From Vicinamibacterales bacterium (GTDB taxonomy: Bacteria; Acidobacteriota; Vicinamibacteria; Vicinamibacterales; CAVVIG01), in NCBI GenBank assembly GCA_035693505.1, contig DASSGK010000567.1, positions 4,734-68,733 on the forward strand: a stretch of 64,000 nucleotides of DNA, written 5' to 3'. Positions 3,203 to 53,543 of this stretch are shown here, one piece after another (the stretch's first letter is position 1; each line of letters starts with the position of its first letter). The notes under the pieces are model-generated. The model made no database searches and was not told the origin of the DNA. It saw only the letters and a program-made list of their open reading frames with translations. The position numbers and the translations under genes are program-made.

Positions 3203-3230
3203 TTCCTCAAAATCCGCGCTTCCTCGAACC

Positions 3231-5519
3231 CTAATTTCTGAGGGGCTTGCCGGTTTTCAACGTGTGCTGAATACGCTCCAGCGTCTTGCGCTCTCCGCAC
3301 AGTTTCAGGAACGCTTCGCGCTCCAGCTCGAGGATGTACTCCTCGCTGACCGTCGTCTGGTGCGGCAGTGCACCGCCCGATAACACGTTCGCGAGCGCGC
3401 GGCCGACGACCGCGTCGTGATCGCTGATGCGGCCGGCTCTCCATGCCAGGTGGACGCCGAGCTTGATCGCCGCGAGCACGGTCTGGCCGCCGGCCAGGAT
3501 CGCGGTCCGCCGCGCGGGACGCTGGTAGCCTTCCTGCACGCGCTCGAGCGCATACGCCTTGGCGTCGGCCATGAGGCGCTCGCGGTTCATCGTCACGCGA
3601 TCGGCGTCGCCCAGGAAACCGAGCCGTCTTGCATCCGCGGCGCTCGTCGACACTTTCGCAAATCCGATGGTCTCGAAGGCCTGCTGAACGAACGGCAGCA
3701 GGTCGGGGTGGTTGGCCGGCAGTCCGTGAACCGCTCGCGCCAGCATTTCCTTGGTGCCGCCGCCGCCGGGTATCAGGCCGACGCCGACTTCGACGAGTCC
3801 GATATAACTTTCCGCGGCAGCCTGGACTCGGTCGGCGTGCAATGCCATCTCGCAGCCGCCGCCGAGCGTCAGCCCGGCGGGTGCGACGATCACGGGAACG
3901 TCGGCGTAGCGCAGCGCCTGGGTCGCGCCCTGGAACGTGCGAATCATCAGGTCGATCTCGTCCCAGTTGCCCTCCTGCGCCTCCAGCAGGAGCAGCATCA
4001 GGTTGGCGCCCGCGGAGAAGTTCGCCGCGTCGTTTCCGACGACGAGCGCCGCGAAGTTCGCCGCAGCCTCTTTTACGCCGGCGTGGATCATTTGAATCTG
4101 ATCGCCGCCGATGGCGTTCATCTTCGCGTGGAACTCGAGGGCCAGGACGCCGTCGCCGAGGTCGACGAGGCTCGCACCGGAGTTCTTGCGGACGATCCTG
4201 TTCCGTTCACGCGCGGACTTCAGGATCCACAGGTCGCTCGGCTGAAGCGTTCCGTGATCGCTCGGCTGAAGCCTTCGCGCTACATTCGATGCTGAGGAGC
4301 CTTCCTGTAGCGCGAAGGCTTTAGCCGAGCGTTCGTCGGTGGCTTGAGCCGAGCGTTCACTGCCTGTGAGGGTCGAGCGCCCGAGCGCCTCGATGATCGC
4401 GAACGGGCCCAGCTCCCAGCCGAATCCCCATCGCATCACCCGGTCCACATCGTCAGGCGAGTGCGCGATGTCGGGAGTGACTTTGGCCGTGTACTCGAGG
4501 GTCGGACCCAGTGTCTCGCGCAGGAATTCGCCGACCTTGTCCTTGCCGTGATAGAGCGACTTGATCCGTTCGCCGGTGTCTTCGATCGACTTTCCGGCCT
4601 CGATGGATGCCAGGCGCGCCGGTTGCTTCGGCCGGTACTCGAGCGTCGCGGGATCGAGCGTCAGGATCTCGCTGCCATCCTTTGTCTTTACGCGCTTGTA
4701 GAAGCCTTGACCGGCTTTCTCGCCGATCATCCCCTTCTCGATCATCGCCTTCACGAACGCCGGCAGCTCGAAGCCGAGGTTCTTCGCGACGTGCGCCAGG
4801 ATGTCGATGCCGGCAATGTCCATCGTCCGGAACGTGGCGCTTTTGGGGCGCCCGAGCGCCGGCCCGGTGATCGCGTCAATTTCCTCGATCGTGTAGCGGC
4901 CGCTCTCGAGCGCCTTCAGCGTCAGCATCACGCCATACAGTGCGAGATGGTTGCCGATGAAGTTCGGCGTGTCCTTCGCGAGCACCACGCCTTTGCCGAG
5001 TCGATGATCCGTGAACTGTGAGACGCGTTCGACGACGTCCGGATCGGTTTCGGCCGTCGGGATGACTTCGACGAGATGAAGGTAGCGGGGCGGGTTGAAG
5101 AAGTGCGTGCCGAGCCAGTGTCGTCGAAAATCGTCGCTTCGCCCTTCAGCGAGCGTCGCAATCGGAATTCCGGACGTGTTCGACGACACGATCGTGCCGG
5201 GACGACGAACGGCGTCGACGCGCTCGAGCAGCGTGCGCTTGATGTCGAGCTGTTCGACGACTGCTTCCGTGATCCAGTCCACCGACGCCAGCGCCGCGAA
5301 GTCTGTGTCGAACCCACCTATCGTGATGCGGGTGGCGGTGTCGCCTGTAAAGAATGGATCGGGCTTGAGCGACCGCGCGCGCTTGAGCCCCTCGCGCGCC
5401 ACGTCCGCGGTCAGGTCGAGCAGCATCACCGGGACGCCCGCATTCGCGAAGTGCGCGGCGATCTGCGCGCCCATCGTTCCGGCTCCGAGAACCGCCACCG
5501 ATCGGATCGTGTGCGCCAT
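3231..5519 (-). CDS. fused 3-hydroxyacyl-CoA dehydrogenase / enoyl-CoA hydratase (FadB/FadN-like)
   Basis: N-terminal VAVLGAGTMGAQIAAH Rossmann motif and HAD domain, plus a C-terminal crotonase fold (GGGCEMALHAD). A 42-codon repeat-derived insert sits in the interdomain linker. Confidence 0.9.
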   Translation of the reverse strand: MAHTIRSVAVLGAGTMGAQIAAHFANAGVPVMLLDLTADVAREGLKRARSLKPDPFFTGDTATRITIGGFDTDFAALASVDWITEAVVEQLDIKRTLLERVDAVRRPGTIVSSNTSGIPIATLAEGRSDDFRRHWLGTHFFNPPRYLHLVEVIPTAETDPDVVERVSQFTDHRLGKGVVLAKDTPNFIGNHLALYGVMLTLKALESGRYTIEEIDAITGPALGRPKSATFRTMDIAGIDILAHVAKNLGFELPAFVKAMIEKGMIGEKAGQGFYKRVKTKDGSEILTLDPATLEYRPKQPARLASIEAGKSIEDTGERIKSLYHGKDKVGEFLRETLGPTLEYTAKVTPDIAHSPDDVDRVMRWGFGWELGPFAIIEALGRSTLTGSERSAQATDERSAKAFALQEGSSASNVARRLQPSDHGTLQPSDLWILKSARERNRIVRKNSGASLVDLGDGVLALEFHAKMNAIGGDQIQMIHAGVKEAAANFAALVVGNDAANFSAGANLMLLLLEAQEGNWDEIDLMIRTFQGATQALRYADVPVIVAPAGLTLGGGCEMALHADRVQAAAESYIGLVEVGVGLIPGGGGTKEMLARAVHGLPANHPDLLPFVQQAFETIGFAKVSTSAADARRLGFLGDADRVTMNRERLMADAKAYALERVQEGYQRPARRTAILAGGQTVLAAIKLGVHLAWRAGRISDHDAVVGRALANVLSGGALPHQTTVSEEYILELEREAFLKLCGERKTLERIQHTLKTGKPLRN
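4233..4358. repeat. 126-nt compound palindromic element embedded in frame in the fadB-like CDS
   Basis: Inner arms are 4259-4283 (CGCTCGGCTGAAGCCTTCGCGCTAC) and 4307-4331 (GTAGCGCGAAGGCTTTAGCCGAGCG), with one mismatch. Outer arms are CGCTCGGCTGAAGCG and TTGAGCCGAGCG. The element is 126 nt, exactly 42 codons. Confidence 0.9.
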
Positions 5520-12046: not shown

Positions 12047-12523
12047 ATGGCGATCGATCGACAGGGCACCGGCCTCACCATCGTCCGCATCTGCATCGGC
12101 ATCTTCTTCGTCTTCGAAGGGATTGGGAAGGTTCGCTGGTTCGCCGACCCTTCGCAGCTTGCGAGCCAGCTTGCCGGCTGGGCGCAGGCGGTTCCGTCAG
12201 CATCGTGGAGCCACGCGTATCTGACGCGGGTCGCGATCCCTTACGTGTCCGTCTTTGCGCGGCTCGTCCCGCTCGGCGAAATCGTGTCGGGCGCCGCGCT
12301 GATTGCCGGATGCTGGACGCCGCTGTTTGCCTTCGTCGCCTTCTTCATGGCGTTCAATTTCCAGTTCGCGAGCGGCGCGCTCTTCAAGTACAGCTTCCTG
12401 ACGAGCGGATACGGTCTGCCGGTGCTCGGGTCTACGCTCGCACTGGTTGTGGGAGGAGTACGGCTGCCGTGGAGCATTGGCGTTTCAACACCGCCGCGTG
12501 CCATGAAAGCAAGAAGCAGTTGA
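12047..12523 (+). CDS. DoxX-family membrane protein
   Basis: 158 aa with four predicted TM segments and the N-terminal LTIVRICIGIFFVFEGIGKV pattern typical of DoxX. Confidence 0.7.
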   Translation: MAIDRQGTGLTIVRICIGIFFVFEGIGKVRWFADPSQLASQLAGWAQAVPSASWSHAYLTRVAIPYVSVFARLVPLGEIVSGAALIAGCWTPLFAFVAFFMAFNFQFASGALFKYSFLTSGYGLPVLGSTLALVVGGVRLPWSIGVSTPPRAMKARSS

Positions 12524-13802
12524 CGATCGCCAGGATCACCGTGAGGTCGATGACGGTGATGCCGCGTGGCACCGCGTAACCGATGCCGTCGCCAAATCCA
12601 TAAAACAGGTTCAGGTTCAGCGCGACCACCGCGCTGACGCCGACCGCAATCGGCGCGAAGGCTCGGCGCCCCGCAGACGCCAGGACGAGCAAAGGCACCG
12701 CGGCGAACAGGTGGTTTTCGTGGACCTGCGCCGAAAGCGTCGCGTACGCGTGGACGATGAACGCGGCCACGCCGGCGATCAGCCACAAATCAATTGAAAA
12801 TTGCCAATTGCTGATTGCAAATTGATAGGCCCTCCAGACTGCCCACGCGGCCGCGGCGACAGTCAGCACGATGCCGATCGTTCGCGGATCCGGATAGCCG
12901 ATCTCGATGACGCGCTGGATGCCGAGAATGCGCGCCGGCGCGGTGAACGCGGCCCACGCGCCCATGTCGTGGATCGAGTACCGCACGCGAAACAGATAGC
13001 CGATCACCCACCACAGGTTCGCCGCGTTGGCGGACAGCATGTCGTGCTGCGCCAACCGTCCGAGCGCCTGCAGCATGTTGCGCCATCCGCCGGCGGCGAT
13101 GACAGGGGCCAGGATCAGGACCGCGGCTGCGCTCGCTCCGCCCGCGGCAGACAGGAAGCGCCTGATGCGCGTGTCTCGCGCGCCGCTCGTCCATAGCGCA
13201 AGCGCCACAGCCGGCGCGACGAACACACCCTGCGCCTTGGTGAGGATCGACGCGGCGATCAGCGCACCGGCGATTGCGGGCCAGCCCGCGACGGCAGCGG
13301 CCAGGGCAGCCATCGCCGGCAGCACGTACGGCGCGTCCAGATAGCCGAGGATGCTCGCGTCGAACAAGGCCGCCGGGTTCAGCCAGAACGCGGCAGCCGC
13401 GAGCCGCGCGGCGCCGACTCCTAGGTTCCTTCGCACCAGGGCGAACAGGAGGACGACAAGTCCGACTTCCGCGGCGACTGCCGGCAGCTTGACGAAGGCG
13501 TTCAGCGGCGTGGCGTTGGGAAACCTGTGATGCGACCACAGCCAGTACGCGTTGCCCGCGACGCCGAGCTCGAGCAGCGCGAGCGGCGGATAGTCGACCG
13601 TGGCGCTGGCTCCGGCGTACATCAGTTCACGCCGTTCGAGCGGCACGCCGCCGACGCCGTACATGTCGCCGACGCCGTGTCTCGCGGCGTTATAGCTCCA
13701 GACTTTCCAGACCGTGAGATCGCCGGTGCCGGGCCCCGGCAGCGCAACGGCGCGGATCAGCGCGCCAGCAATGATGAGCGCAGCAAATTGGGAACGTGAC
13801 AC
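12432..13802 (-). CDS. GT-C fold polytopic membrane glycosyltransferase (PMT/ArnT/DUF2029-like)
   Basis: 456 aa with many TM helices. The first periplasmic loop carries an acidic/aromatic motif (TVDYPPLALLE), as in polyprenyl-phosphate-sugar-dependent GT-C enzymes. Confidence 0.6.
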   Translation of the reverse strand: MSRSQFAALIIAGALIRAVALPGPGTGDLTVWKVWSYNAARHGVGDMYGVGGVPLERRELMYAGASATVDYPPLALLELGVAGNAYWLWSHHRFPNATPLNAFVKLPAVAAEVGLVVLLFALVRRNLGVGAARLAAAAFWLNPAALFDASILGYLDAPYVLPAMAALAAAVAGWPAIAGALIAASILTKAQGVFVAPAVALALWTSGARDTRIRRFLSAAGGASAAAVLILAPVIAAGGWRNMLQALGRLAQHDMLSANAANLWWVIGYLFRVRYSIHDMGAWAAFTAPARILGIQRVIEIGYPDPRTIGIVLTVAAAAWAVWRAYQFAISNWQFSIDLWLIAGVAAFIVHAYATLSAQVHENHLFAAVPLLVLASAGRRAFAPIAVGVSAVVALNLNLFYGFGDGIGYAVPRGITVIDLTVILAIVNCFLLSWHAAVLKRQCSTAAVLLPQPVRA

Positions 13803-29713: not shown

Positions 29714-30801
29714 TGCTGTATCACCTGCTCTACCCGTTCCACACTCAGCTGTCGGTGCTGAACGTGACGCGCTACATCACGTTCCGCACGGCCGCGTCGA
29801 CGTTGTCCGCACTCGCCATCAGTCTCGTGTTCGGACCCTGGCTGATCCGGAAGCTGCGCGAGTTCCAGATCGGGCAGGTCATCCGCACCGAAGGTCCGCA
29901 GTCTCATCGTCCGAAAGCCGGAACGCCGACGATGGGAGGTCTGCTGATCCTGACGGCGGCGCTCGTTCCGACACTGTTATGGGCCGACCTGACGAACGCG
30001 TACGTCTGGATCGCGGTGCTGACGACGGCGGGATACGGCGGCATCGGGTTTGCCGACGACTATTTGAAGATCGTGCGCCGCTCTCACCATGGCCTGCTGC
30101 CGCGCTACAAGATGGGCTGTCAACTCGCCATCGGCATCGCCGTTGGGATCGCGTTGATCATCCTGCAGCGCGAGGGCCTGTACAACACGCGCCTGGTTTT
30201 TCCATTTTTCAAGCGCCTGATTCCCGATCTCGGCTACGGCTACCTCGCGTTCGCGGTGTTCGTGCTTGTCGCGGAGTCGAACGCGGTGAACCTCACCGAT
30301 GGCCTGGACGGACTCGCGATCAGCGTGTTCGCGATTGCCGCGAGCGCGTACACGGCGCTCGCGTACGTCACCGGTCACCGCGTGTTCGCCGAGTATCTGC
30401 TGCTCGTTCGCTTTCCGCAGGCCGCCGAGCTGACGGTGTTCTGCGGATCGCTGGTCGGCGCCTCGCTGGGTTTCCTTTGGTACAACTCGTACCCGGCAGA
30501 AATATTCATGGGCGACGTCGGATCGCTGGCCCTTGGCGCCGCGCTCGGCATCGTCGCCATCCTGATCAAGCAGGAACTGCTGCTGTTGATTGTCGGCGGT
30601 GTCTTCCTGCTCGAAGCCGCGTCGGTTGTTCTCCAGGTCGGCTACTTCAAGGCGACTGGAGGTCAACGCATCTTTCGCATGGCGCCGCTGCACCACCATT
30701 TCGAACTGATCGGTTGGAGCGAGCCGAAGGTGATCACGCGCTTCGTGATCGTCGGAATCATCTTCGCGCTGTTCAGCCTTGCGACGTTGAAGCTTCGCTA
30801 G
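29713..30801 (+). CDS. mraY: phospho-N-acetylmuramoyl-pentapeptide transferase
   Basis: Polytopic membrane protein with NAVNLTDGLDGLA and MGDVGSLALG motifs. Confidence 0.95.
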   Translation: MLYHLLYPFHTQLSVLNVTRYITFRTAASTLSALAISLVFGPWLIRKLREFQIGQVIRTEGPQSHRPKAGTPTMGGLLILTAALVPTLLWADLTNAYVWIAVLTTAGYGGIGFADDYLKIVRRSHHGLLPRYKMGCQLAIGIAVGIALIILQREGLYNTRLVFPFFKRLIPDLGYGYLAFAVFVLVAESNAVNLTDGLDGLAISVFAIAASAYTALAYVTGHRVFAEYLLLVRFPQAAELTVFCGSLVGASLGFLWYNSYPAEIFMGDVGSLALGAALGIVAILIKQELLLLIVGGVFLLEAASVVLQVGYFKATGGQRIFRMAPLHHHFELIGWSEPKVITRFVIVGIIFALFSLATLKLR

Positions 30802-30871
30802 GGGCTGGGGACTTAGGGGCTAGGGACTAGGGATTTAGGGGCTAGGGCTAAGGGCTGGGGGCTAGGGCTAG
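30799..30871 (+). repeat. G-rich heptamer array (about 10 units of GGGNCTA) filling the mraY-murD spacer
   Basis: TAGGGGCTGGGGACTTAGGGGCTAGGGACTAGGGATTTAGGGGCTAGGGCTAAGGGCTGGGGGCTAGGGCTAG. It has ten G3-5 tracts and six CTAG tetramers, and starts on the mraY TAG stop. No inverted partner is present. Confidence 0.9.
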
Positions 30872-30875
30872 AAAC

Positions 30876-32237
30876 GTGGGATTCGACGTGACCAACAAAC
30901 GCGTGACCGTTGTCGGCGCAGCGAGGAGCGGCCTTGCCGCCGCCGAGTTGCTGGCGCGCCGTGGTGCGCGCGTCACGCTGTCGGATGCGCGGGCTGATGT
31001 GCCTGAAGCCGACTATCTGCGCGGACTGGGCATCGCGCTGGAGCTTGGCGGACATGTGCCGGACACGTTCACCTCGGCGGACCTCGTCGTCCTCAGCCCC
31101 GGCGTGCCGCCGGAGCAGGACGTCGTGCAGGCGGCGCGCGATCGCGGCGTTCCGGTGATCGCGGAGATCGAGCTCGCGTCGCGATGGCTCCAGGGCCGCC
31201 TCATCGCGATCACCGGCACCAAGGGGAAGTCGACGACGACGGCGCTGACTGGCCGGATTCTGGAGGCGGCGGGATTCAAAGTGACCGTGGGCGGCAACAT
31301 CGGATCACCACTGAGCGCGCAGGTGTCGGAGTCGACGCCCGAGACGTTCCATGTCGTCGAGACGAGCAGCTTTCAGCTCGAGCAGATCGACACCTTCCAT
31401 CCGTGGATCGCGGTGATGCTCAATTTCTCGCCGGATCACCTCGATCGTCATCCAGACGTCGCGGCGTACGGAGCCGCGAAGGCGCGGGTCTTCGAGAATC
31501 AGGCCGTCGGCGATTTCGCTGTGATCAATGCCGACGATCCCGCGGTCCTGGCGCTCGCGAAGAAGGGAAGGGCGGCGGCGCGGAGATTCTCGGCCAGCGG
31601 ACAAATCGACTTCGGCACGGTCGTGGACGAGGGATGGATTGTCGATCGGCAGCCGGCGCGGTCGCAGCGGCTCGTGCCACTCGACGCGATTCATCTGCTC
31701 GGTCCGCACCTGGTCAACGACGTCATGGCCGCGGCTACCGTCGGCGCGATCGCCGGTGCCGCGCCGGAAGCGATGACATCAGCCGTCGACGCGTTCCACG
31801 GTCTCGAGCACGCGATGGAGCTCGTTGCCGACGTGGACGGCGTGCGGTTCGTCAACGACTCGAAGGCGACCAACGTCGAATCGGCGCTCCGCTCGATTGA
31901 GAGCTTCGATCGGGATCTGGTGCCGATCATGGGTGGACGGTTCAAAGGCGGCGATCTCCGGCTGCTGCGCGATCCGCTGAAGGCGCGCGGGAAGGCGGTC
32001 GTGGCGATCGGAGAAGCGAGAGCGCTCCTGCGCGATGCGTTGAGCGATGTCGTACCGGTCGAAGAGGCCGACAGCTTCCCGGCGGCCATCGATCGCGCGT
32101 ACGAGCTTGCGAAGCCGTCGGGCGTGGTGCTGCTCGCCCCTGCATGCGCGAGCTTCGACATGTTCCGTGACTACGCGGAGAGGGGGCGGCGCTTCAAAGA
32201 AGAAGTGAAGCGACTCTCGAGGAGGGCTGAGAGCTAA
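30876..32237 (+). CDS. murD: UDP-N-acetylmuramoylalanine--D-glutamate ligase
   Basis: VVGAARSGLAAA Rossmann-like N-terminus, GTKGKSTTT P-loop, and dcw position. A GTG at 30888 is an alternative start. Confidence 0.95.
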   Translation: MGFDVTNKRVTVVGAARSGLAAAELLARRGARVTLSDARADVPEADYLRGLGIALELGGHVPDTFTSADLVVLSPGVPPEQDVVQAARDRGVPVIAEIELASRWLQGRLIAITGTKGKSTTTALTGRILEAAGFKVTVGGNIGSPLSAQVSESTPETFHVVETSSFQLEQIDTFHPWIAVMLNFSPDHLDRHPDVAAYGAAKARVFENQAVGDFAVINADDPAVLALAKKGRAAARRFSASGQIDFGTVVDEGWIVDRQPARSQRLVPLDAIHLLGPHLVNDVMAAATVGAIAGAAPEAMTSAVDAFHGLEHAMELVADVDGVRFVNDSKATNVESALRSIESFDRDLVPIMGGRFKGGDLRLLRDPLKARGKAVVAIGEARALLRDALSDVVPVEEADSFPAAIDRAYELAKPSGVVLLAPACASFDMFRDYAERGRRFKEEVKRLSRRAES

Positions 32238-32318
32238 GGGCTCAGGGCAGAGTCGAGGGCCACTGAGCGCTCTGCGCCAATGAGCCCTCAGCGCTAAGCC
32301 CTAAGCCCTGACAGGTTC
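32225..32318. repeat. GGCTNAG heptamer-based imperfect hairpin overlapping the murD stop
   Basis: Left arm GGCTGAGAGCTAAGGGCTCAGGGCAGAG and right arm CTCAGCGCTAAGCCCTAAGCCCTGACAG pair in a 7-nt register. The inner pair is GAGGGCCACTGAGCGC / GCGCCAATGAGCCCTC. Confidence 0.75.
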
Positions 32319-34786: not shown

Positions 34787-34932
34787 GGTGCTGGGTTCAG
34801 CGTGCCGAGTTCAGGGTTCGTTCGCAGTTCGGGGTTCGGGGTTCGGGATTCGAAAGAACGCTGCACCCTGCACTCGGAACCCGGAACCCTGGACGAATGC
34901 TGCACTTTGAACCCTGAACCAGGAACCCGACT
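34787..34932. repeat. GGGTTCR heptamer-based imperfect hairpin filling the murG-murC spacer
   Basis: The left arm is G/T-rich (…GAGTTCAGGGTTCGTTCGCAGTTCGGGGTTCGGGGTTCGGG). The right arm is the imperfect complement (…CTCGGAACCCGGAACCCTGG…TTTGAACCCTGAACCAGGAACCCG). Confidence 0.8.
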
Positions 34933-40091: not shown

Positions 40092-41837
40092 ATGAATTCC
40101 TGGGAACAGCGCGAACGCGCACAGCTCACCCTTTCGAAAGAAGTCGGCTACGTCAAGAAGCCGCACGGCAGCCGCCTGCGCGTCGCCCTGGCGTTTCCAA
40201 ACACGTACTGGGTCGGGATGTCGAATCTCGGCTTCCAGACCATCTACCGGCTCTTCAACGCCGAAGACGACATCGTCTGCGAGCGGTTCTTTCTGCCGCC
40301 GAAGCAGGAGCTTGCCGCGATGTCTTCGGCGAAATCGCCGCTCCTGACGCTGGAATCACAAACGCCGGTCGGCGACTTCGACGTGGTGGCGTTCTCCGTC
40401 TCCTTCGAGTGGGACTACGTGAACGTGCTCACGCTGCTGCGCCTCGCCGGCATTCCTGCCTACGCCGCCGAGCGCTCGTCGCGTCATCCGCTGATTGTCG
40501 TCGGCGGCGCGGTGACGTTCGTCAACCCTGAACCGCTCGCGCTGTTCGCCGACGTGATTGCCGCCGGCGAAGGCGAAGTGCTCGTGCCCGGCCTTCGCCG
40601 CTCGGTTGCGGCCGCCGCCGACCGAGATCACCTGCTGCAACTCCTCGCCGCGGAGCGCGGCTTCTACATTCCCGCCTTCTACGAGCCGCGCTACGCCGCC
40701 GACGGGACGCTGGCGGGATACGCCGTGCGCGAAGGCATCGACGCTCCGGCGATCGTGAAGAAGGCGGCGCTGAAGGTGACCGACGCGGTCGATCCACCGG
40801 CGACCGGCATCTTCACTCCCGACACGGAATTCGGATCGCGCTTTCTGGTCGAAGTCGTTCGCGGCTGCGCGAACCTCTGCCGCTTCTGCTGGGCGGGCTA
40901 CAACTATCTACCCGTCCGTGCGTTCCCCGCCGATCGGATCCTGCAGCTCGCGCGAGAGGCGCGGGTACATTCGAACCGGGTCGGCCTTGTCTCGATTGCA
41001 CTCTGCGATCATCCCGAGATCGATCGCATTCTCGCGAACCTTCTCGAGATGGGGTACGCCATCAGCCCCGCGTCTTTACGGCTGGACGATCTCACGCAGT
41101 CGATCGTCCAGGTGCTGACGGCGAGCGGCGAGCGAACGATCACCATCGCGCCGGAGACCGGTTCCGATCGCCTGCGCCGCGTGATCAACAAGACGGTGAC
41201 CAACGACGAAATCCTCGATCGCGCCGATTTGATCTTCGCGAACGGCATCGAGAACCTGAAGCTCTACTACATGATCGGCCTCCCCACCGAGACGGACGAA
41301 GACCTGGTGGCGATTCGGGATCTCACCCTCCAGATCCGCGATCGCATGTTGAAGTACGCGCGCTCCAAGGGACAGGTCGGCCGGATTGTCGGCAGCGTGA
41401 ACCCGCTGATTCCCAAACCCGGCACCGCGTACCAGTGGATCCCGATGGAGGACCCGGCCGTGATCGATCGCAAGATCAAACGGCTGCGGTCGCTCACCGC
41501 CGACATCGACAACGTCTACTTCAACATCAAGTCGGAGCGGCACTCCTACTTCCAGGCGCTGCTGTCGCTCGGCGACCGTCGCGTGGCGCCGGCGATTGCC
41601 ATCGCCGAACAGAACGGACAGAACTGGCGCGCCGCCGTCGCCGACGCGGGCATCGACGGCGACTTTTACATCTTCCGCGACCGCAGCAAGGACGCCGCGC
41701 TGCCGTGGGACATCATCGACGGCGGCATGAAGCGCTCGTTCTTCGAGGCCGAGTACGGCAAGAGCCTTCGAGAGGAGTGGACGCTCCCACCCAAGCGCGC
41801 GCAGGAGAACGCCAAGCTACTGCCGGTAATTCAGTAG
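40092..41837 (+). CDS. B12-binding-domain radical SAM protein (TIGR03960-like)
   Basis: LRVALAFPNTYWVGMSNLGFQTIY N-terminal domain and the CANLCRFCWAGY CxxxCxxC cluster motif. A GTG at 40068 is an alternative start. Confidence 0.8.
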   Translation: MNSWEQRERAQLTLSKEVGYVKKPHGSRLRVALAFPNTYWVGMSNLGFQTIYRLFNAEDDIVCERFFLPPKQELAAMSSAKSPLLTLESQTPVGDFDVVAFSVSFEWDYVNVLTLLRLAGIPAYAAERSSRHPLIVVGGAVTFVNPEPLALFADVIAAGEGEVLVPGLRRSVAAAADRDHLLQLLAAERGFYIPAFYEPRYAADGTLAGYAVREGIDAPAIVKKAALKVTDAVDPPATGIFTPDTEFGSRFLVEVVRGCANLCRFCWAGYNYLPVRAFPADRILQLAREARVHSNRVGLVSIALCDHPEIDRILANLLEMGYAISPASLRLDDLTQSIVQVLTASGERTITIAPETGSDRLRRVINKTVTNDEILDRADLIFANGIENLKLYYMIGLPTETDEDLVAIRDLTLQIRDRMLKYARSKGQVGRIVGSVNPLIPKPGTAYQWIPMEDPAVIDRKIKRLRSLTADIDNVYFNIKSERHSYFQALLSLGDRRVAPAIAIAEQNGQNWRAAVADAGIDGDFYIFRDRSKDAALPWDIIDGGMKRSFFEAEYGKSLREEWTLPPKRAQENAKLLPVIQ

Positions 41838-41953
41838 GGCATTGAGTAATTGGGTAATCTGGTAATTGGGTAATGGTTGGGTGATTGCCAATCAACTACC
41901 CGACGATCCGATTACCCGATTACCCGATTATCCAATTCCCCAATTACCAGCTG
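41838..41953. repeat. TGGGTAA heptamer-based imperfect hairpin between convergent genes
   Basis: Left arm GAGTAATTGGGTAATCTGGTAATTGGGTAATGGTTGGGTGATTG. Centre GATTG-C-CAATC at 41883-41893. Right arm CAACTACCCGACGATCCGATTACCCGATTACCCGATTATCCAATTCCCCAATTAC. It fills the whole gap between two stop codons. Confidence 0.85.
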
Positions 41954-42250
41954 CTAACTGGCGATTGCGGCTCGCTCCTCGTATTCCTGAAACGCTTCCA
42001 GAATCAGATCCCGCAGCTTCGCCTGCGCCGTACTGTCGACGATGGGCCGCAACAGCGCGAAGCTGCGGCGGTCACCGTTGACCACGTACGATCGCGCCGG
42101 GAACGTGACGTTGCGGCCGTTGCCGCCGCGGCGTTCCCAGACGGAGAAGCCAATCAGCTTCAGGCCTTCCATCGGACCATCGCTGAAGTGGAGCTCGGCG
42201 TCGGCGAGCTTTCCGGGCGGATTCCCTTTGTCGTTCGGCATAATCTTGAT
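41954..42250 (-). CDS. small SpoVG-like protein (hypothetical)
   Basis: MTIKIMPNDKGNPPGKLADAELHFSDGPMEGLKLIGFSVWERRGGNGRNVTFPARSY...FALLRPI... follows the beta-rich SpoVG-like layout. That assessment rests on my pattern recognition, not a search. Start chosen at the ATG at 42250; 42274 is possible. Confidence 0.4.
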   Translation of the reverse strand: MKIMPNDKGNPPGKLADAELHFSDGPMEGLKLIGFSVWERRGGNGRNVTFPARSYVVNGDRRSFALLRPIVDSTAQAKLRDLILEAFQEYEERAAIAS

Positions 42251-45118: not shown

Positions 45119-45122
45119 TTGG

Positions 45123-45206
45123 GAAGTATGAAGGAAGAAGTTAGAAGTGAGAAGGAAGAACTTTCCCGCTTCCACTTCTAACTTCTTCCTTCTCCCTTCT
45201 ACCTTC
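45123..45206. repeat. GAAGKNA heptamer hairpin immediately after rpoD (probable terminator)
   Basis: Perfect 20-bp stem between GAAGGAAGAAGTTAGAAGTG (45130-45149) and CACTTCTAACTTCTTCCTTC (45173-45192). Both arms are tandem heptamers. The pyrimidine arm runs into the rpoD stop codon. Confidence 0.85.
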
Positions 45207-46989
45207 ATGAAGTGCGTCCTTCGAGGAACGCCCGAAGTTTGCGCGACCGCGACGGATGCCGCAGCTTGCGCAGCGCCTTGGCTTCGATCTGACGGATGCG
45301 CTCGCGCGTGACCGCGAAGCTCTGGCCGACTTCTTCGAGCGTGTGCTCGCTGCCGTCGCCGACGCCGAACCGCATCTTGATGACTTTTTCCTCGCGCGGC
45401 GTGAGCGTCTTCAGCACCGATTCGGTCTGTTCCTTGAGATTCAGGTTGATGACCGCTTCGGCCGGCGACACCACCTGCCGATCCTCGATGAAGTCGCCAA
45501 GATGCGAATCTTCCTCCTCGCCGATCGGTGTTTCGAGCGAGATGGGCTCCTGCGCGATCTTCAGCACCTTGCGGACCTTCGAGACCGGGATGTCCATCCG
45601 CTTGGCGATCTCTTCAGAGGTCGGTTCGCGTCCAAGCTCCTGCACCAGCGCGCGAGAGGTTCGAATCAACTTGTTGATCGTCTCGATCATGTGGACCGGG
45701 ATGCGGATCGTCCGCGCCTGGTCGGCGATCGCGCGCGTGATGGCCTGGCGGATCCACCAGGTTGCGTACGTCGAGAACTTGTAGCCGCGGCGGTACTCGA
45801 ACTTGTCGACCGCCTTCATCAGGCCGATGTTGCCTTCCTGAATCAGGTCGAGGAACTGCAGTCCGCGGTTGGTGTACTTCTTTGCGATCGACACGACGAG
45901 GCGCAGGTTGGCTTCGACGAGCTCTTTCTTCGCCTGCTCGGCCTGGTACTCGCCGCGCAGAATCACGTCGAGCGTCTGCTTCAACTCGTCCGGCGACTGC
46001 TCGAGACTGTCGGTGATGCCCTTGATCTTGAGCTTCAGCTCCTTGATCTGGCGCTGGATGTTCTTCTTTTCCTCGTCCTTCAGCTTCGACTTCTTGTTCT
46101 TCGGGTTCAGCAGCCGCTCGTTCGCGTCGACCTCGCGCTGCACCGCGCGCACGCTCTCGACGGCATCTTTCATGTCCTCGATCAGGCGCCGCTTGACCGA
46201 TTCGGTGAACTCGATCTTCCGGATGTAGTTCGACAGCTCCACCTGCGCGCGCATCGTCTGCCACTTGCACTTGCGGTACTTGCGCTTGTCGCGGCTGGTC
46301 GTGCCTTTCGGCGTCTCCTGGAGCTTCTCGTCGAGTTTCTCGTAGACGGCGCGGGCGCGGCGGACTGCGTCGATCTGCTTCTGCACCTGCTTCGAGCGCT
46401 CGACGATGCGCTCGTCGGTGATTTCCTCGTCGTTGAAGATCACCAGTTCGCGGATCGTGCGGTCGCCGGTGTGCAGCTGGTCGCCCAGGTGGATGACCTT
46501 CTTCGAAATCAGCGGCGTGCGCGAGATCGACTTGATGACCGCCAGCTTGCCTCGCTCGATGCGGCGGGCGATTTCGACTTCGCCCTCGCGCGTCAGCAGC
46601 GGCACGGTGCCCATCTCGCGGAGGTACATCCGGACGGGGTCGTTGGTCTTGTCGAGCGCTCCTGGTGTGAGATCGAGCTCGAGCTCTTCCGCGCCTTCCG
46701 CGGTGCGGTCGATCGGCTTGACGTCGTCGCGCAGATATTTCTGATCGGAGTCGATGACTTCGATGCCCGCGCTGCCGAACGTGTTGAACAGATCGTCCAG
46801 CTCGTCGGGCGACGTGATGTCGGCCGGCAGGAGCTCGTTCACCTCGTCGTAGAGGAGATAGCCCTTCTCCTTGCCGATATTGATGAGCTGCCGAACCTCG
46901 TCGTATTTCTCCTCGATCGAGAGGTGCGGGGCGCCGGGCGCTACGTCAGTTCCTCGATGCGATGGAGTAGGTCTTTTTTCCGCTGCCAT
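45205..46989 (-). CDS. rpoD: RNA polymerase sigma factor RpoD (sigma-70)
   Basis: Regions 1.1 to 4.2 are present ([48 protein letters not shown]; [20 protein letters not shown]). Confidence 0.97.
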
Positions 46990-48720: not shown

Positions 48721-51105
48721 TCATTCCTTGAGCTCCACGACCGTGACGCCGCCGCCGCCCTGTTCCGGGGGCGCTGTTGCAAATCTCGCGACCAACGGGT
48801 GCTGCTGCAGAAAGCCGGTAAGCGCGCGCTTCAACTGACCGGTGCCGTACCCGTGAATCAAACGGATGACGCGTTGATCCGTGAGCAGCGACTCGTCGAG
48901 AAAACGCTCGGCGCGCGTCAACGCTTCATCGACGGTGCAGCCGATCACGTTCAGATCCAGCGCGGTCGTCTCGCGCGGCTGAAGTTCGACGTTGACGTTG
49001 ACGCGAGGCGCAGCCGGCTGGCCTCCGATAATTCGGAGGTCGCGGATGCTCGCGCGCATGCGCTTGCCTCGGACGTCGAGTTCGGCGGTGCCGTCGTGGA
49101 CGGCAGTCACCGTTGCTTCGAGGCCGAGGCCGCCGACTATTACGCGACAACCGACGACGACATGGCTCAAGGCGGAGGGCTGAGGGCTCAGGGCTGAGGG
49201 CTCAGGAATCGCCTCACCGGCGTTCGCGCGCGCCGCGATCGCATCGACGGCGTTGCGCGCGTCGCTGCGTGCCGTGCCGGCGTCGCCGGTCGACACCAGC
49301 CGCGGCGCCTTAGCCATCGCGTCTGCTTTTGCCTTCAGCGCGGCGATGACTTCGTCGATCTCCTTGCGGGCTTGACGCACCTGTGTGTTCAACTCGTCGT
49401 TCAGCCGGCGCTTGAACGTTTCCTCACGCTGGTGCAGCGCGTTCTCGCGGTGCTGCATCCGCGATTCGGCGTCCTTCAAGGTCTCGCGCTCGCGTGCCGC
49501 GAGGCGCTGCTCGTGCTCGAGCGCGCGCATGTCGCGATCGATCTTCGCCAGATGCTCGGCGAGTTGAGCCTCGCGCGCGCTCAGGTTGTCGCGCGCGGCG
49601 GCGACAACGGCGGGGTTCAGGCCAAGCCGCCCGGCGATCTCGAGCGCCAGGCTCCGTCCGGGGCTGCCGTAGATCAACTGGTAGGTCGGCTCGAATGTCG
49701 TCAGCTCGAAACCGAACGCCGCGCTCGCGACGCCCTCCGTCGTTGACGCGTACGTCTTCAGCTGGTCGTAGTGGCTCGTTGCGATCACGGTCGCGCCGCG
49801 GCGCCGGAAGTGATCCACGATGGCCACGCCGAGCGCGCCGCCTTCGATCGGATCGGTTCCCGACCCGACTTCGTCGAGCAGCACGAGCGCAGGCGTGACC
49901 AGCCCACGGTCCATCGACGCAATGTTCGTGATGTGCGCCGAGAAGGTGCTCAGGCTGGCTTCGATCGATTGCTCGTCGCCGATGTCGGCGAACAGCGACC
50001 GGAACACCGGCAGCTGCGACCCATGCGCGGCAGGAATGCGAAGACCGGCCTGCATCATGATGGCGAGTAACCCTGCCGTCTTCAATGCAACGGTTTTGCC
50101 GCCCGTGTTGGGGCCGGTGACGAGCAGGATGGTCGCCGGCGGGATCACCTTGATCGTGACCGGGACAGGGTTTTTCAGCAGCGGGTGTCGGGCCGCCTGC
50201 AGTTCGAAGGCGCCATCGGTTGAAATCCGCGGCTCGGCGCCGTCGATCGACTGGGAGAACCGGGCGCGTCCCTGCCTGATGTCGAGCTCGGTCGCCGCCT
50301 CGATCGTCCGCTCCATCTCGCCGGCGCGGCGTCGGAACGCATCGGTCAGGGCGAGCAGAATTCTCCGGACCTCTTCGGCCTCCTGCTCTTCGAGTGCGAC
50401 GATGTCGTTGTTGATCTCGACGGTGCTCAACGGCTCGAGAAACAGGCTGGCGCCGCTGGTCGACGTGCCGTGAACGATGCCGGGGATGCCGCTGCGATGC
50501 TCGGCCTTCACGAGCAGGACGTACCGGCCATTCCGTTCCGAGACGACCTGATCCTGGAGGTATTTCGCGGTCTCCTTGCCTCGCAGGTACGACTCGAGCG
50601 TGCTCCGCAGGCGCGTCTTCTGCTTGCGGACCCGTTCGCGAATCAGCCGCAACTCCGGGCTGGCGTGATCGACGACCTCACCCGACGGGTCGATCTTCTC
50701 GCGCACTTGAGCCGACTCGCCCTTGAACGACGCGGCGCCCGCAGCGACGGCCTCGAGCAGCGGAAAGGCTTCGGGAGCGCGGCGGATGCTGGCGCGCGAT
50801 TCGTCAATCGAATCGAGAAACGTCGCGAGCCCCAGCAGCCGAAGCGATTCGAGCGCCCGTCCCTGGACCCCGAGCGCCTCGAGAATCGCCGGCAAATCGC
50901 TCGAGGCGCGCAGCGGAAACAGGCCGTGAGCCGTTACGAACCGCACGGTCTCGCTCGTCGCGGCCTGCCAGTCGGCGACCTGCTGCGGATCGGTGGACGG
51001 CGCCAGCCGCGACAGCCGCTCGGCGCCCATGGGCGTTACGGCGAAGCCGGCGACGGCTTCCACAATGCGGTCGAATTCGAGAGCCCGAAGGGCGCCTTGT
51101 TGCAT
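48721..51105 (-). CDS. mutS2: endonuclease MutS2 (MutS domain plus C-terminal Smr)
   Basis: This is the real part of the 1520-aa track ORF, running from MQQGALRALEFDRIV (ATG at 51105) for 794 aa. GPNTGGKT Walker A and Smr domain LIHGYGTGQLK. Confidence 0.9.
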   Translation of the reverse strand: MQQGALRALEFDRIVEAVAGFAVTPMGAERLSRLAPSTDPQQVADWQAATSETVRFVTAHGLFPLRASSDLPAILEALGVQGRALESLRLLGLATFLDSIDESRASIRRAPEAFPLLEAVAAGAASFKGESAQVREKIDPSGEVVDHASPELRLIRERVRKQKTRLRSTLESYLRGKETAKYLQDQVVSERNGRYVLLVKAEHRSGIPGIVHGTSTSGASLFLEPLSTVEINNDIVALEEQEAEEVRRILLALTDAFRRRAGEMERTIEAATELDIRQGRARFSQSIDGAEPRISTDGAFELQAARHPLLKNPVPVTIKVIPPATILLVTGPNTGGKTVALKTAGLLAIMMQAGLRIPAAHGSQLPVFRSLFADIGDEQSIEASLSTFSAHITNIASMDRGLVTPALVLLDEVGSGTDPIEGGALGVAIVDHFRRRGATVIATSHYDQLKTYASTTEGVASAAFGFELTTFEPTYQLIYGSPGRSLALEIAGRLGLNPAVVAAARDNLSAREAQLAEHLAKIDRDMRALEHEQRLAARERETLKDAESRMQHRENALHQREETFKRRLNDELNTQVRQARKEIDEVIAALKAKADAMAKAPRLVSTGDAGTARSDARNAVDAIAARANAGEAIPEPSALSPQPSALSHVVVGCRVIVGGLGLEATVTAVHDGTAELDVRGKRMRASIRDLRIIGGQPAAPRVNVNVELQPRETTALDLNVIGCTVDEALTRAERFLDESLLTDQRVIRLIHGYGTGQLKRALTGFLQQHPLVARFATAPPEQGGGGVTVVELKE
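49165..49206. repeat. Six GCTNAGG heptamers (42 nt, 14 codons) in frame inside mutS2
   Basis: GCTCAAG GCGGAGG GCTGAGG GCTCAGG GCTGAGG GCTCAGG on the plus strand. I checked the codon boundaries against the mutS2 frame; it is translated on the minus strand as PEPSALSPQPSALS. Confidence 0.9.
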
Positions 51106-51138
51106 TTGAGGGGGAACCCTCAATACTACCGTACAGAC

Positions 51139-51226
51139 AGGGGCTAGGGACTGGGGACTAGGGGCTAGAAAAAAAGAAAAAGCGCCTGGCCTCAAGCTAG
51201 CCCCGAGTCCCGAGCGCCCAGCCCCT
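51139..51226. repeat. GGGNCTA heptamer hairpin after larB, overlapping its stop codon
   Basis: The left arm AGGGGCTAGGGACTGGGGACTAGGGGCTAG (51139-51168) pairs imperfectly with CTAGCCCCGAGTCCCGAGCGCCCAGCCCCT (51197-51226). The A-rich 28-nt loop is T-rich on the larB sense strand. Confidence 0.85.
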
Positions 51227-51986
51227 ACAAGTGATTGATCAGCGAGGCAATTGAAGCGGCCCCGAACCCGTTGTCGATGTTGACCACCGACACGCCGGAC
51301 GCGCAGCTGTTCAACATGCCCAACAGCGCGGCAATGCCGCCGAAGCTGGCGCCGTAGCCGATGCTGGTGGGGACCCCGATCACCGGCACGCTGACCAGGC
51401 CCGCGACCACGCTGGGCAGCGCGCCTTCCATCCCGGCGACGACGATGATGACGCGCGCGGCCGCGAGGCGTTCGCGCTCTCCCAGCAGCCTGTGAATACC
51501 AGCCACGCCGACGTCGTACAGGCGGCCGACCTCGTTTCCCATCAATTCGGCGGTGAGCGCCGCCTCTTCGGCAACCGGCAAATCCGACGTCCCGGCGGCG
51601 GCGACGAGGATGGTGCCCCGGCCCGGGCTCACGTCTTGCTGGCGAAGCGTGATGAGAGCGGCATCGGCATGGTAAACGGCACTCGGGACAGCGGCTCGGA
51701 CGGCCTCGTAGGAGGCGCTGCTCGCGCGTGTGACCAGCAGCGTCGAGCCGCGGGCTACGATTTCCTGCGCGATCGCCGCGATCTGGGCCGGCGTCTTCCC
51801 AAGGCCAAGGACGACTTCCGGAAAACCCTGGCGGAGCGATCGGTGGTGATCGACGCGCGCAAATCCCAGATCCTTGAAGGGTTGCGCACGCATCGCCTCC
51901 AGCAGCCGCTCCTTGGCGATCGCCGGATCGAGTGCGCCGGACGCGACCTGATCGATCAGATCCTGGAGCTGTTTGTTTGACGTCAT
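51225..51986 (-). CDS. larB: nickel-pincer cofactor biosynthesis protein LarB (NaAD carboxylase/hydrolase, PurE-like)
   Basis: About 250 aa with a PurE-like C-terminal domain (ILVAAAGTSDLPVAEEA...VIIVVAGMEGALPSVVAGL...VIGVPTSIGYG) and the typical LarB N-terminal extension. Confidence 0.8.
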   Translation of the reverse strand: MTSNKQLQDLIDQVASGALDPAIAKERLLEAMRAQPFKDLGFARVDHHRSLRQGFPEVVLGLGKTPAQIAAIAQEIVARGSTLLVTRASSASYEAVRAAVPSAVYHADAALITLRQQDVSPGRGTILVAAAGTSDLPVAEEAALTAELMGNEVGRLYDVGVAGIHRLLGERERLAAARVIIVVAGMEGALPSVVAGLVSVPVIGVPTSIGYGASFGGIAALLGMLNSCASGVSVVNIDNGFGAASIASLINHL

Positions 51987-52041
51987 CGAATACCCAACAG
52001 TACAATAACTGCTTGTGCCGGTGGGGGTTCCACCTTAAACC

Positions 52042-53538
52042 ATGACGCCAGCTGAAACCCTCACCCTCGCCGCATATTTCTTCGTCGTCATCGTGCTCGC
52101 CATCTACGGATGGCACCGGTACTACCTCGTGTACCTCTACATGAGTAACCGGGACAAAGAGCCGCAACTCGGCCGCCCGCTCGATCCGCTGCCGATCGTG
52201 ACCATCCAGCTTCCGCTCTACAACGAGATGTACGTCGCGGAGCGCCTGATCGACGCGGTGTGCGCGATCGACTATCCGCGGCACCTGCTCGAGATTCAGG
52301 TACTGGACGACTCGACCGACGAGACGCGCAATATCGCCGAGCTGGCCGCCCGCCGCTACGCCGACGAAGGCATCGATATCAAATACATTCACCGTATCGA
52401 TCGCGTCGGATTCAAGGCCGGCGCGCTCGAGGCCGGGCTGAAGATCGCCCGCGGGGAATTCGTCGGCATTTTCGACGCTGACTTCATCCCGACCACCGAT
52501 TTCCTGACAAGGCTGCTGCCGCATTTCGCCGATCCGAAGGTCGGGATGGTGCAGGCGCGCTGGGGGCACATCAACCAGGACTACTCGCTGCTCACGAAGA
52601 TCCAGGCGATCCTGCTCGACGGCCATTTCATTCTCGAACACGGCGGCCGCAACCGCGGCGGGCGTTTCTTCAATTTCAACGGCACCGCCGGCGTGTGGCG
52701 GCGAACCGCAATCGACGAGGCTGGCGGGTGGCAGCACGACACCCTCACCGAAGATCTCGATCTGAGCTACCGCGCGCAGCTCGCGGGCTGGCAGTTCGTG
52801 TTCGTCCCGGGCCTGATTGCGCCCGCGGAAGTGCCCGTCGAAATGAACGCCTTCAAGTCGCAGCAGCACCGCTGGGCCAAGGGTTCCATCCAGACCTGCC
52901 GGAAGCTGCTGCCGCGGATCCTGAAATCGAACCTGCCGATCGGCGTGAAGGCCGAGGCGTTCTTTCACCTGACGGCGAACTTTAACTACATCCTGATGTG
53001 CATCCTGTCCATCCTGATGTTCCCGTCGATGGTGATCCGCTACAACATGGGCTGGTACGAGATGATCCTCATCGACGTCCCCCTGTTCTTCGCCGCGACC
53101 TTTTCGTTCTGCAATTTCTACATGGTGTGTCAGCGTGAACTGCACAAGGACTGGGTGTCGCGCCTGAAGTACGTGCCGTTCCTGATGTCGGTCGGAATCG
53201 GGCTGTCGGTCAACAACACCCGCGCCGTGTTCGAAGCGCTGTTCAACAAGAAAAGCGAATTTACGCGGACGCCCAAGTACCACATCGAAGGCGACGGCGA
53301 CGAGTGGGTCGGCAAGAAGTACCGGCAGTCGGTTGCCGTGCAGCCGCTGGTCGAGCTGGCGCTGGGCCTGTACTTCACGTGGACGGTCTTCTACGCGCTC
53401 GCCAACGGCATCTATGCGACCATCCCGTTCCTGGTCCTCTTCCAGGTGGGTTTCCTCTACACGGGCCTGCTCTCGATCGTGCAGCAGTACGCGAGCTCGG
53501 TCGGTCTTGAAAGTCAGAAGTTAGAGGTTAGAAGTTAG
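52042..53538 (+). CDS. membrane-embedded processive-type GT2 (cellulose-synthase-like / CslA-MGlcDG-synthase-like)
   Basis: N-terminal TM, QLPLYNE, VLDDSTDET, FDADF, TEDLDLSYR and the QQHRWAKG (QxxRW) motif, plus C-terminal TM helices. Confidence 0.85.
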   Translation: MTPAETLTLAAYFFVVIVLAIYGWHRYYLVYLYMSNRDKEPQLGRPLDPLPIVTIQLPLYNEMYVAERLIDAVCAIDYPRHLLEIQVLDDSTDETRNIAELAARRYADEGIDIKYIHRIDRVGFKAGALEAGLKIARGEFVGIFDADFIPTTDFLTRLLPHFADPKVGMVQARWGHINQDYSLLTKIQAILLDGHFILEHGGRNRGGRFFNFNGTAGVWRRTAIDEAGGWQHDTLTEDLDLSYRAQLAGWQFVFVPGLIAPAEVPVEMNAFKSQQHRWAKGSIQTCRKLLPRILKSNLPIGVKAEAFFHLTANFNYILMCILSILMFPSMVIRYNMGWYEMILIDVPLFFAATFSFCNFYMVCQRELHKDWVSRLKYVPFLMSVGIGLSVNNTRAVFEALFNKKSEFTRTPKYHIEGDGDEWVGKKYRQSVAVQPLVELALGLYFTWTVFYALANGIYATIPFLVLFQVGFLYTGLLSIVQQYASSVGLESQKLEVRS

Positions 53539-53543
53539 AAGTG
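53509..53543 (+). repeat. AGAAGTT heptamer array bridging the GT2 stop and the DUF362 start
   Basis: GAAAGTC AGAAGTT AGAGGTT AGAAGTT AGAAGTG. The TAG stop (53536-53538) and the GTG start (53541) both lie inside heptamer units. Confidence 0.85.

Follow-up and report, generated by a model that had tools for sequence, protein, structure and literature searches.

Whether a tandem array of 7-nucleotide (nt) units inside the coding sequence of a conserved gene acts as a switch, or is only carried along, is the question raised by mutS2 in a 64,000-nt stretch of a Vicinamibacterales genome (contig DASSGK010000567.1; the whole stretch is called the window here). The array lies 1.9 kb into the 2.4-kb open reading frame (ORF), about 80% along the gene. 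An initial annotation had described it as six GCTNAGG units inserted in frame as exactly 3n units, and had proposed that gain or loss of units makes mutS2 a contingency-locus-like switch. According to our analysis, this coding microsatellite is most likely a passenger in a linker that is disordered and permissive, has been filtered by selection for reading frame and for the absence of stop codons, and is not a switch. The coordinates of all features are collected in Table 1.

On the plus strand, positions 49165-49206 consist of six 7-nt units (42 nt), GCTCAAG, GCGGAGG, GCTGAGG, GCTCAGG, GCTGAGG and GCTCAGG; on the minus strand, which is the sense strand, the units are CCTGAGC, CCTCAGC, CCTGAGC, CCTCAGC, CCTCCGC and CTTGAGC. 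The described GCTNAGG unit is matched exactly by four of the six, while the other two are degenerate with one mismatch each. Translation of the minus strand around the array gave ...GEAIPEPSALSPQPSALSHVVVG..., within an intact ORF of 794 amino acids (aa) at 48721-51105, and bore out that the 42-nt array encodes PEPSALS-PQPSALS (residues 634-647) in frame. Tandem Repeats Finder reported a period of 7 with 5.1 copies and 86% matches at 49171-49206, a period of 14 with 2.2 copies and 100% matches, which is the longest perfect repeat at the site, and a period of 21 with 2.0 copies. Adjacent units are never identical to each other. A lag-7 scan with a threshold of at least 18/21 matches found three arrays in the window, the mutS2 array among them, and none in 20 composition-preserving block shuffles of the window. 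The mutS2 array is thus confirmed as a genuine heptanucleotide tandem array, with more 7-nt units in tandem than chance would give, and it is translated in frame in the MutS2 linker, as had been proposed.

The host gene is mutS2. The window protein is identical to database protein P0001, named endonuclease MutS2 of a Vicinamibacterales bacterium, and aligns end to end with the Bacillus subtilis MutS2 of the collided-ribosome structures (8qpp, 7qv3; E ~1e-121). It has the domain V ATPase (Pfam MutS_V, residues 328-509), a KOW/SH3-like domain (a weak Pfam match) and the Smr domain, without the mismatch-binding domain I. The MSSS/SH3-like domain starts directly 3' of the array. The initial placement of the array between the MutS2 core and the Smr domain thus stands as far as the linker is concerned, but the array does not directly adjoin Smr, since the KOW/SH3-like domain intervenes.

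The stretch that joins the long C-terminal coiled coil to the KOW/SH3-like domain could not be aligned among MutS2 orthologues from Acidobacteriota, Firmicutes, Chloroflexi and other phyla, and its length differs in every lineage; linkers are frequently rich in Pro, Ala and Ser in unrelated MutS2 proteins too. An AlphaFold2 model, poor as a whole (mean predicted local distance difference test score, pLDDT, of 57) and used solely for local confidence near the linker, showed a confident helix at residues 498-597, pLDDT below 50 at residues 628-647, no secondary structure at 629-653, and confident beta strands at 654-692 (pLDDT ~75). The homologous region of B. subtilis MutS2 is described as a flexible loop, and on collided ribosomes KOW and Smr dock apart from the ATPase core (PMC10897456). 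The array thus codes for the central part of a flexible tether.

A protein search with the window MutS2 returned a graded series of matches from 100% to 82% identity. The 14-residue segment is kept, with point changes only, in all 16 protein clusters at 92-100% identity (P0001-P0010, P0012-P0015, P0017 and P0059), which correspond to about 30 contigs; variants of it include SALSPQPSPL, SALGTQPSAL and SAISPQASAL. More distant MutS2 proteins carry other peptides of 7-residue periodicity at the linker, such as QSAIRNPQSAI, QSISNQQSAIS and ESAIESAIRNPQSAM. Linker DNA was compared in six relatives. The close strain L086 has the array type of the window, and the other five have other heptamer arrays, namely (CAATCAG)n, (CAATCCG)n, (CCATCAG)n, and (GCTCTCA)4 followed by (CAATCAC)4.7.

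A metagenome scan added 80 further mutS2 loci, which, combined with the earlier clade loci, gave 96 with a recognisable downstream anchor. A heptamer array of at least three units was present in the same MutS2 loop in 48 of these 96 anchored Vicinamibacterales loci, with CAATCAG units at 13 loci, CAATCCG at 12, CCATCAG at 3 and CCCTCAG at 3. According to Tandem Repeats Finder, the unit count in relatives ranges from 3 to 13 and is most commonly 4.6 (32 nt). Most of the relatives' arrays share a fixed 3' boundary, between ...CAAT and GTN, just before the domain. Both length and sequence therefore vary among relatives at one site, with 3-13 units and several unit variants. The same periodicity was evident when 86 distinct linkers were pooled: mean autocorrelation reached 0.446, 0.407 and 0.382 at lags 7, 14 and 21, respectively, compared with 0.21-0.35 for the remaining lags; flanking coding DNA, used as a control, gave 0.25-0.27 at lag 7. 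In many clade members the array is absent and the linker short, and in the nearest species-representative genomes (L017, L019 and L001, 74-83% identity) the linker DNA is unrelated to that of the window.

The units CAATCAG, CCATCAG, CCCTCAG (the window type) and CAATCCG are single-step neighbours, and the 42-nt array of L089 (90% identity) mixes CCATCRG and CCCTCAG units. A recent or private insertion in the window lineage was considered and rejected in favour of turnover in situ: in an alignment with 24 orthologues, the linker is hypervariable everywhere and is not longer here. The term 'inserted', as initially used, is thus not borne out, given that array-free orthologues do not have shorter linkers and that intermediates such as L089 exist. 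At the level of sequence, the series of variants fits one old array that would have evolved in place by point mutation and by the spread of unit variants.

Repeat DNA of another kind was also seen in the mutS2 linker. Three relatives carry there, in frame, an imperfect palindrome CCTTCGACAAGCTCAGG..CCTGAGCTTGTCGAAGG resembling a repetitive extragenic palindrome (REP), which encodes SGRPELVEGR. In L148 this REP-like element has heptamer units on both flanks, and a further REP-like copy lies in L014 (minus strand, near 4514). The presence of a REP-like element in frame means that the loop can accommodate repeat DNA of different kinds.

Changes in linker length were then related to protein divergence. 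Linker length is equal in 93% of the protein pairs that are at least 98% identical outside the linker, and in 32% of the pairs at 96-98%; indels are nearly absent from the rest of MutS2. Translated heptamer arrays thus make linkers evolve much faster than the remaining protein. A clean 21-nt (three-unit) indel within a CAATCCG array separates P0106 from P0114, proteins with 98.2% identity outside the linker. The window and L086 differ at 5 of the 42 array positions (three of the changes nonsynonymous), without any indel, at a whole-gene nucleotide divergence of 5.3%; this comparison suggests that the array is under relaxed constraint. P0011 is 95% identical overall, yet has a CAATCAG-type linker, and the adjoining codons are divergent too, which suggests a recombinational replacement of the linker region.

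The array lengths that Tandem Repeats Finder gave for relatives do not fall on multiples of 21 nt and split 18/7/24 modulo 3, so that it is the linker in its entirety, rather than the number of units, that maintains the frame. Exactly 3n units is therefore not a rule, the relatives having mostly 4.6 units; the 3n count in the window depends on including the two degenerate units, and an intact gene must preserve the frame in any segment. Direct reading further showed that the TGA-bearing units CCTGAGC and CTTGAGC occur only in phases that leave the TGA out of frame; at units 2 and 5, where a TGA would be in frame, the sequences are CCTCAGC and CCTCCGC.

A second heptamer array is translated in the window, within a loop of a 456-aa multi-pass membrane protein (12432-13802) that has no Pfam match; its units are CAATTTG, CAATCAG, CAATTGG, CAATTTT and CAATTGA. 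In 120 relatives of this protein, the loop contains QSAIRNPQSAI or TIQSTIQSAIRNP (of the CAATCCG family, as in mutS2 linkers), or APRTSHLAPRTSHL, or is absent. The APRTSHLAPRTSHL loops, with an APRTSHL-type heptad, fit a GCACCTC unit by back-translation. Protein length ranges from 434 to 501 aa, and loop lengths cluster at 7, 14, 21, 28 and 42 residues, with 47 of 121 loops at 0 modulo 7. No match of unit families between the two coding arrays was found within genomes: in the contig-sharing pairs P0030/P0173 and P0047/P0242 the families differ, and genome-wide homogenisation is therefore not indicated. Together, the membrane-protein loop and the REP-like element suggest that mutS2 is not specially targeted, and that its linker is just a permissive site.

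We propose a model in which Vicinamibacterales genomes would generate and maintain 7-nt arrays at high density, mostly just past stop codons and many of them as hairpin pairs, and in which coding arrays would survive only at permissive sites. At such a site, a heptamer array passes through all three phases and so yields a single peptide period of seven residues, which is PSALSPQ in the window and QSAISNQ or QSAIRNP among relatives. Selection would demand two things only, a reading frame kept across the linker and no in-phase stop from any unit. An old array would then drift through point mutations, through unit variants being homogenised and, now and then, through slippage that keeps the frame, such as 21-nt steps. 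Its product would be a disordered spacer with little sequence constraint, and the array itself a neutral passenger. Slippage, as the mechanism that generates such arrays, is what we infer from these patterns. In the clade, 7-nt microsatellites are so frequent that they are found even inside conserved genes, which is relevant to annotation and to the study of protein evolution.

Several points weigh against this model. The persistence of the array in the loop across lineages with about 65% C-terminal MutS2 identity could mean that an extensible linker is selected. The occurrence of the CAATCCG family (QSAIRNP) in two unrelated genes is not obviously explained by local slippage alone. Consensus assemblies would hide minority out-of-frame subpopulations, the AlphaFold2 model that locates the disorder is weak as a whole, and the near-neutrality of the array is, like slippage, a matter that we infer.

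Among the alternatives, a selected 'tuning knob' survives best, although we regard it as unlikely. Here, 7-residue steps would let the tether between the coiled coil and KOW/Smr change length fast, and thereby adapt the reach of MutS2 on collided ribosomes. Such a role would suit a linker whose length changes far faster than the rest of the protein, with a clean three-unit step between alleles 98% identical outside it, and an array that persists at one site across a deep clade; the separate docking of KOW and Smr on the ribosome (PMC10897456) would also suit it. However, the membrane-protein loop, of unrelated function, behaves alike, and many clade members have a short linker and no array.

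A contingency locus is less probable still. In this scenario, slippage by one or two units would reversibly frameshift mutS2 with loss of KOW and Smr, giving subpopulations altered in recombination, repair or ribosome rescue. Its premise holds: the 7-nt unit, inside an ORF, is not divisible by 3, and simulated slips confirmed that gaining or losing one or two units would shift the reading frame. Loss of one unit led to a stop at codon 637 and gain of two units to a stop at codon 644, while gain of one or loss of two units gave products of 728 and 721 aa, respectively, with out-of-frame tails and without KOW and Smr; truncation thus fell at 636-728 aa. Loss of three units kept the frame. Heptanucleotide repeats inside ORFs are, moreover, accepted phase-variation candidates in Haemophilus influenzae, where the tracts proposed to phase-vary have 7-38 units at their longest, 8-14 for those inside ORFs, and differ between strains (PMC2651432). 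Examples are (AATTTTG)14 inside hmw1A and (AACAACC)8-13 in an HI1369 homologue (Power et al. 2009, PMC2651432). The mutS2 tract resembles these in lying inside an ORF, where a change of one unit shifts the frame. The H. influenzae tracts, though, are long and perfect, and their unit number varies between strains and includes out-of-frame alleles, whereas the mutS2 tract is short and imperfect, invariant in close strains and never out of frame, in a housekeeping gene of a soil bacterium.

The observations from relatives agree with this difference. A long, near-perfect tract of identical units is lacking, there being no identical adjacent units and no perfect repeat longer than the 14-mer of 2.2 copies. 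Out-of-frame alleles were sought in related strains and metagenome loci and none was found, and where close alleles do differ in length, as by the clean 21-nt step, the change keeps the frame; the about 30 contigs at 92-100% identity keep the 14-residue segment constant, no indel separates the window from L086, and no unit-number polymorphism with out-of-frame alleles was seen in the consensus assemblies of close strains. No linker was out of frame or contained a stop among the metagenome loci, all 80 of which read through in frame. A search with MutS2 residues 1-633, meant to catch products truncated at the linker, likewise gave no array frameshift among the best 120 hits, the truncated ones of which were inspected individually. 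The position of the array at 80% of the ORF and the similar array in the membrane-protein loop also speak against a switch. A phase-variable mutS2 in a soil acidobacterium was a tempting idea, but it is unsupported and can now be set aside.

Among the same hits, P0129 (contig L167) was considered as an array frameshift and rejected, since the contig leaves mutS2 inside the array and enters unrelated DNA. Positions 1920-2086 of L167 match L168 identically up to a CAATCAG/CAATCAC array and are followed by unrelated DNA, so that L167 is probably a chimera that arose in assembly, at a repeat common to two loci. The hits P0122, P0124 and P0125 break off within the linker and are probably contig ends; for P0124 the collection has no gene record. 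In P0121, a frameshift lies about 50 codons downstream of the array. Heptamer arrays can thus break or mis-join short-read assemblies, as in L167 and in several database MutS2 proteins that end in the linker.

A function of the array as a nucleic-acid element, either a template-strand G-quadruplex or an RNA structure or binding site that modulates how the 3' part of mutS2 is transcribed or translated, is highly improbable. The array does form a canonical G3N4 x4 motif on the plus strand, and the G-rich heptamers of Xanthomonas and Nostoc form G-quadruplexes (PMC4692102). Canonical motifs are depleted in the window (6 observed against about 14 in shuffles), and five of the six lie inside heptamer arrays (two at 30.8 kb, one at 49.2 kb and two at 51.1 kb). 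The CAATCAG and CAATCCG arrays of relatives lack G tracts at the same site, however, and conservation of G tracts or of pairing was tested and was absent, so that the motif is not conserved. The sense RNA of the mutS2 array gave no significant fold (z = -1.22), and no inverted partner array is present, unlike in the intergenic hairpins. Finally, a chance low-complexity Pro/Ser/Ala linker without repeat origin, although linkers of that composition are frequent in unrelated MutS2 proteins, is scarcely credible in view of the DNA-level periodicity (the perfect 14-mer of 2.2 copies), the shuffles without a comparable array, and the lag-7 signal in 86 distinct linkers that is absent from flanking coding DNA.

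The passenger microsatellite reading places the mutS2 array within a wider population of heptamer arrays. A census of tandem arrays of at least three copies covered the window, clade DNA totalling 657 kb, and 453 kb of DNA of other bacteria. The period was 7 for 11 of the 22 arrays found in the window and for 150 of about 240 in the clade, compared with 8 of 34 in the other bacteria, which is a genome-wide excess. Outside the mutS2 linker, the clade arrays are intergenic or overlap ORF ends. Intergenic or stop-proximal location is therefore the rule genome-wide, and the mutS2 array departs from it. Several loci in the window are inverted pairs of arrays predicted to form hairpins (Table 1). 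Each is built from its own unit, z ranges from -2.7 to -6.4, and these microsatellite-built hairpins may serve as terminators or stabilise 3' ends. The array at 30797-30871 formed no hairpin (z = 0.38) and contains two G-quadruplex motifs. The mutS2 heptamer family had been described as shared with the intergenic arrays at 30.8, 32.2 and 51.1 kb; this is correct for 32.2 kb (GGCTNAG), while those at 30.8 and 51.1 kb, of GGGGCTA/GGGACTA types, share only a GGGCT core.

The hairpin at 51.1 kb, upstream of mutS2, has strongly different unit sequences in a strain with 98% identical MutS2, and its flanks are conserved, which shows that intergenic arrays turn over quickly. When window positions 51090-51260 were compared with L086, L088, L081 and L083 (MutS2 95-98% identical), the units were almost wholly different and the arms still looked like inverted arrays, a pattern that suggests rapid concerted turnover of both hairpin arms. 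It is possible, though doubtful on present evidence, that a sequence-biased process in Vicinamibacterales creates or copies heptamer arrays and thereby seeds CAATCCG/CAATCAG, GCACCTC and GGGCTNN units at many sites, among them intergenic hairpins and the permissive loops of unrelated proteins, with linkers changing in 7-residue steps. If such a specific generating mechanism were true, the clade would be a good system in which to ask why heptamers dominate long bacterial repeats.

Related cases are known in other bacteria. The palindromic elements of Rickettsia are reportedly inserted in frame into conserved genes (Ogata et al. 2000). Like the mutS2 array, they are genome-wide repeat DNA that is tolerated at surface-exposed permissive sites and translated there into an additional or variable peptide; they are discrete mobile palindromes of about 100-150 bp, whereas the mutS2 array is a tandem microsatellite evolving in place. 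The short tandemly repeated repetitive (STRR) heptanucleotides of heterocystous cyanobacteria, reportedly described by Mazel et al. 1990, are likewise tandem heptamer families scattered through the genome, with no known function. They differ in phylum and units and are described as intergenic. Calothrix heptanucleotides are mentioned in PMC4692102.

That paper, by Rehm et al. 2015 (PMC4692102), treats the heptameric repeats of Xanthomonas (GGGAATC) and Nostoc (GGGGA(T/C)T). As summarised in PMC4679880, heptanucleotide repeats were seen in excess in bacterial genomes by Mrazek et al. 2007. Published heptamer repeats occur in excess in many bacterial genomes, near stop codons and in inverted pairs, and vary between relatives (PMC4692102; PMC4679880). 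The Vicinamibacterales arrays share with the Xanthomonas and Nostoc repeats a 7-nt unit, a typical copy number of 4-5, a genome-wide excess of period 7, positions a few bases from or overlapping stop codons, inverted pairs, and variation in close relatives. Many units are G-rich and G-quadruplex-capable (here by motif), and some (GGGGATT, GGGGACT) equal the Nostoc consensus. Coding DNA is under-represented among the sites of the Xanthomonas and Nostoc repeats, and translated copies were not traced in those studies, in contrast to the mutS2 array, which is translated, lies deep in a conserved gene and is found clade-wide. Acidobacteriota are outside the scope of those papers, and searches of the literature for such repeats in Acidobacteria or Vicinamibacter brought up no relevant paper. 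The mutS2 array is an atypically coding case of the already known bacterial heptanucleotide repeats.

Table 1 Features of the mutS2 locus, other heptamer arrays of the window, and REP-like elements of relatives. Coordinates are those of the window unless a contig is named.
Feature	Coordinates	Strand	Remarks
mutS2 coding sequence	48721..51105	-	794 aa; ATG at 51105, stop 48721-48723
Smr domain, residues 718-793	48727..48954	-	Pfam PF01713, E 1e-20
MSSS / KOW-like SH3 domain, residues 651-690	49036..49155	-	Pfam PF20297, E 3.5e-4, below gathering score
Flexible linker, ~residues 628-653	49147..49224	-	coiled coil to KOW/SH3-like domain; array fills centre
Heptanucleotide array	49165..49206	-	encodes PEPSALSPQPSALS, MutS2 residues 634-647
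Canonical G-quadruplex motif GGG N4 x4	49177..49200	+ (mutS2 template strand)	regex scan; formed by array
REP-like element in mutS2 linker of relatives	L148 3319-3360; L100 3337-3375; L111 3313-3352
In-frame coding heptamer array	12792..12824	-	within ORF 12432-13802; encodes QFAISNWQFSI
GCTAGGG array, single orientation	30797..30871	+	G-rich, ~10.7 units; intergenic, begins at stop codon
Inverted pair of GGCTNAG-family arrays	32215..32315	+	intergenic, starts at upstream stop codon; hairpin -53.9 kcal/mol, z = -2.65
Inverted-pair hairpin	34800-34900	+	after stop codon; 7-mers; z = -3.3
Inverted-pair hairpin	41830-41955	+	after stop codon; 8-mers; z = -6.2
Inverted-pair hairpin	45120-45215	-	after stop codon; 7-mers; z = -6.4
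Inverted pair of GGGGCTN/GGGACTN arrays	51125..51240	-	AIRC-family gene stop to mutS2 start; long hairpin -55.3 kcal/mol, z = -4.62

The gene order AIRC, mutS2, dnaG, rpoD is kept in the clade apart from L082, in which a PIN/PhdYeFM toxin-antitoxin pair (2678-3303) is inserted between the AIRC-family gene and mutS2. Between mutS2 and dnaG, L161 carries (AGCACCC)x9.9 at 2894-2963, and an open frame through it, upstream of dnaG, gives PSTEHQTPSTEHPSTQHPAPSTQH. In the window, (AAGTTAG)x4.6 at 53511-53542 (plus strand) covers the last approximately nine codons and the TAG stop of a glycosyltransferase gene (52039-53538), and abuts the start of the next gene, of the DUF362 family.

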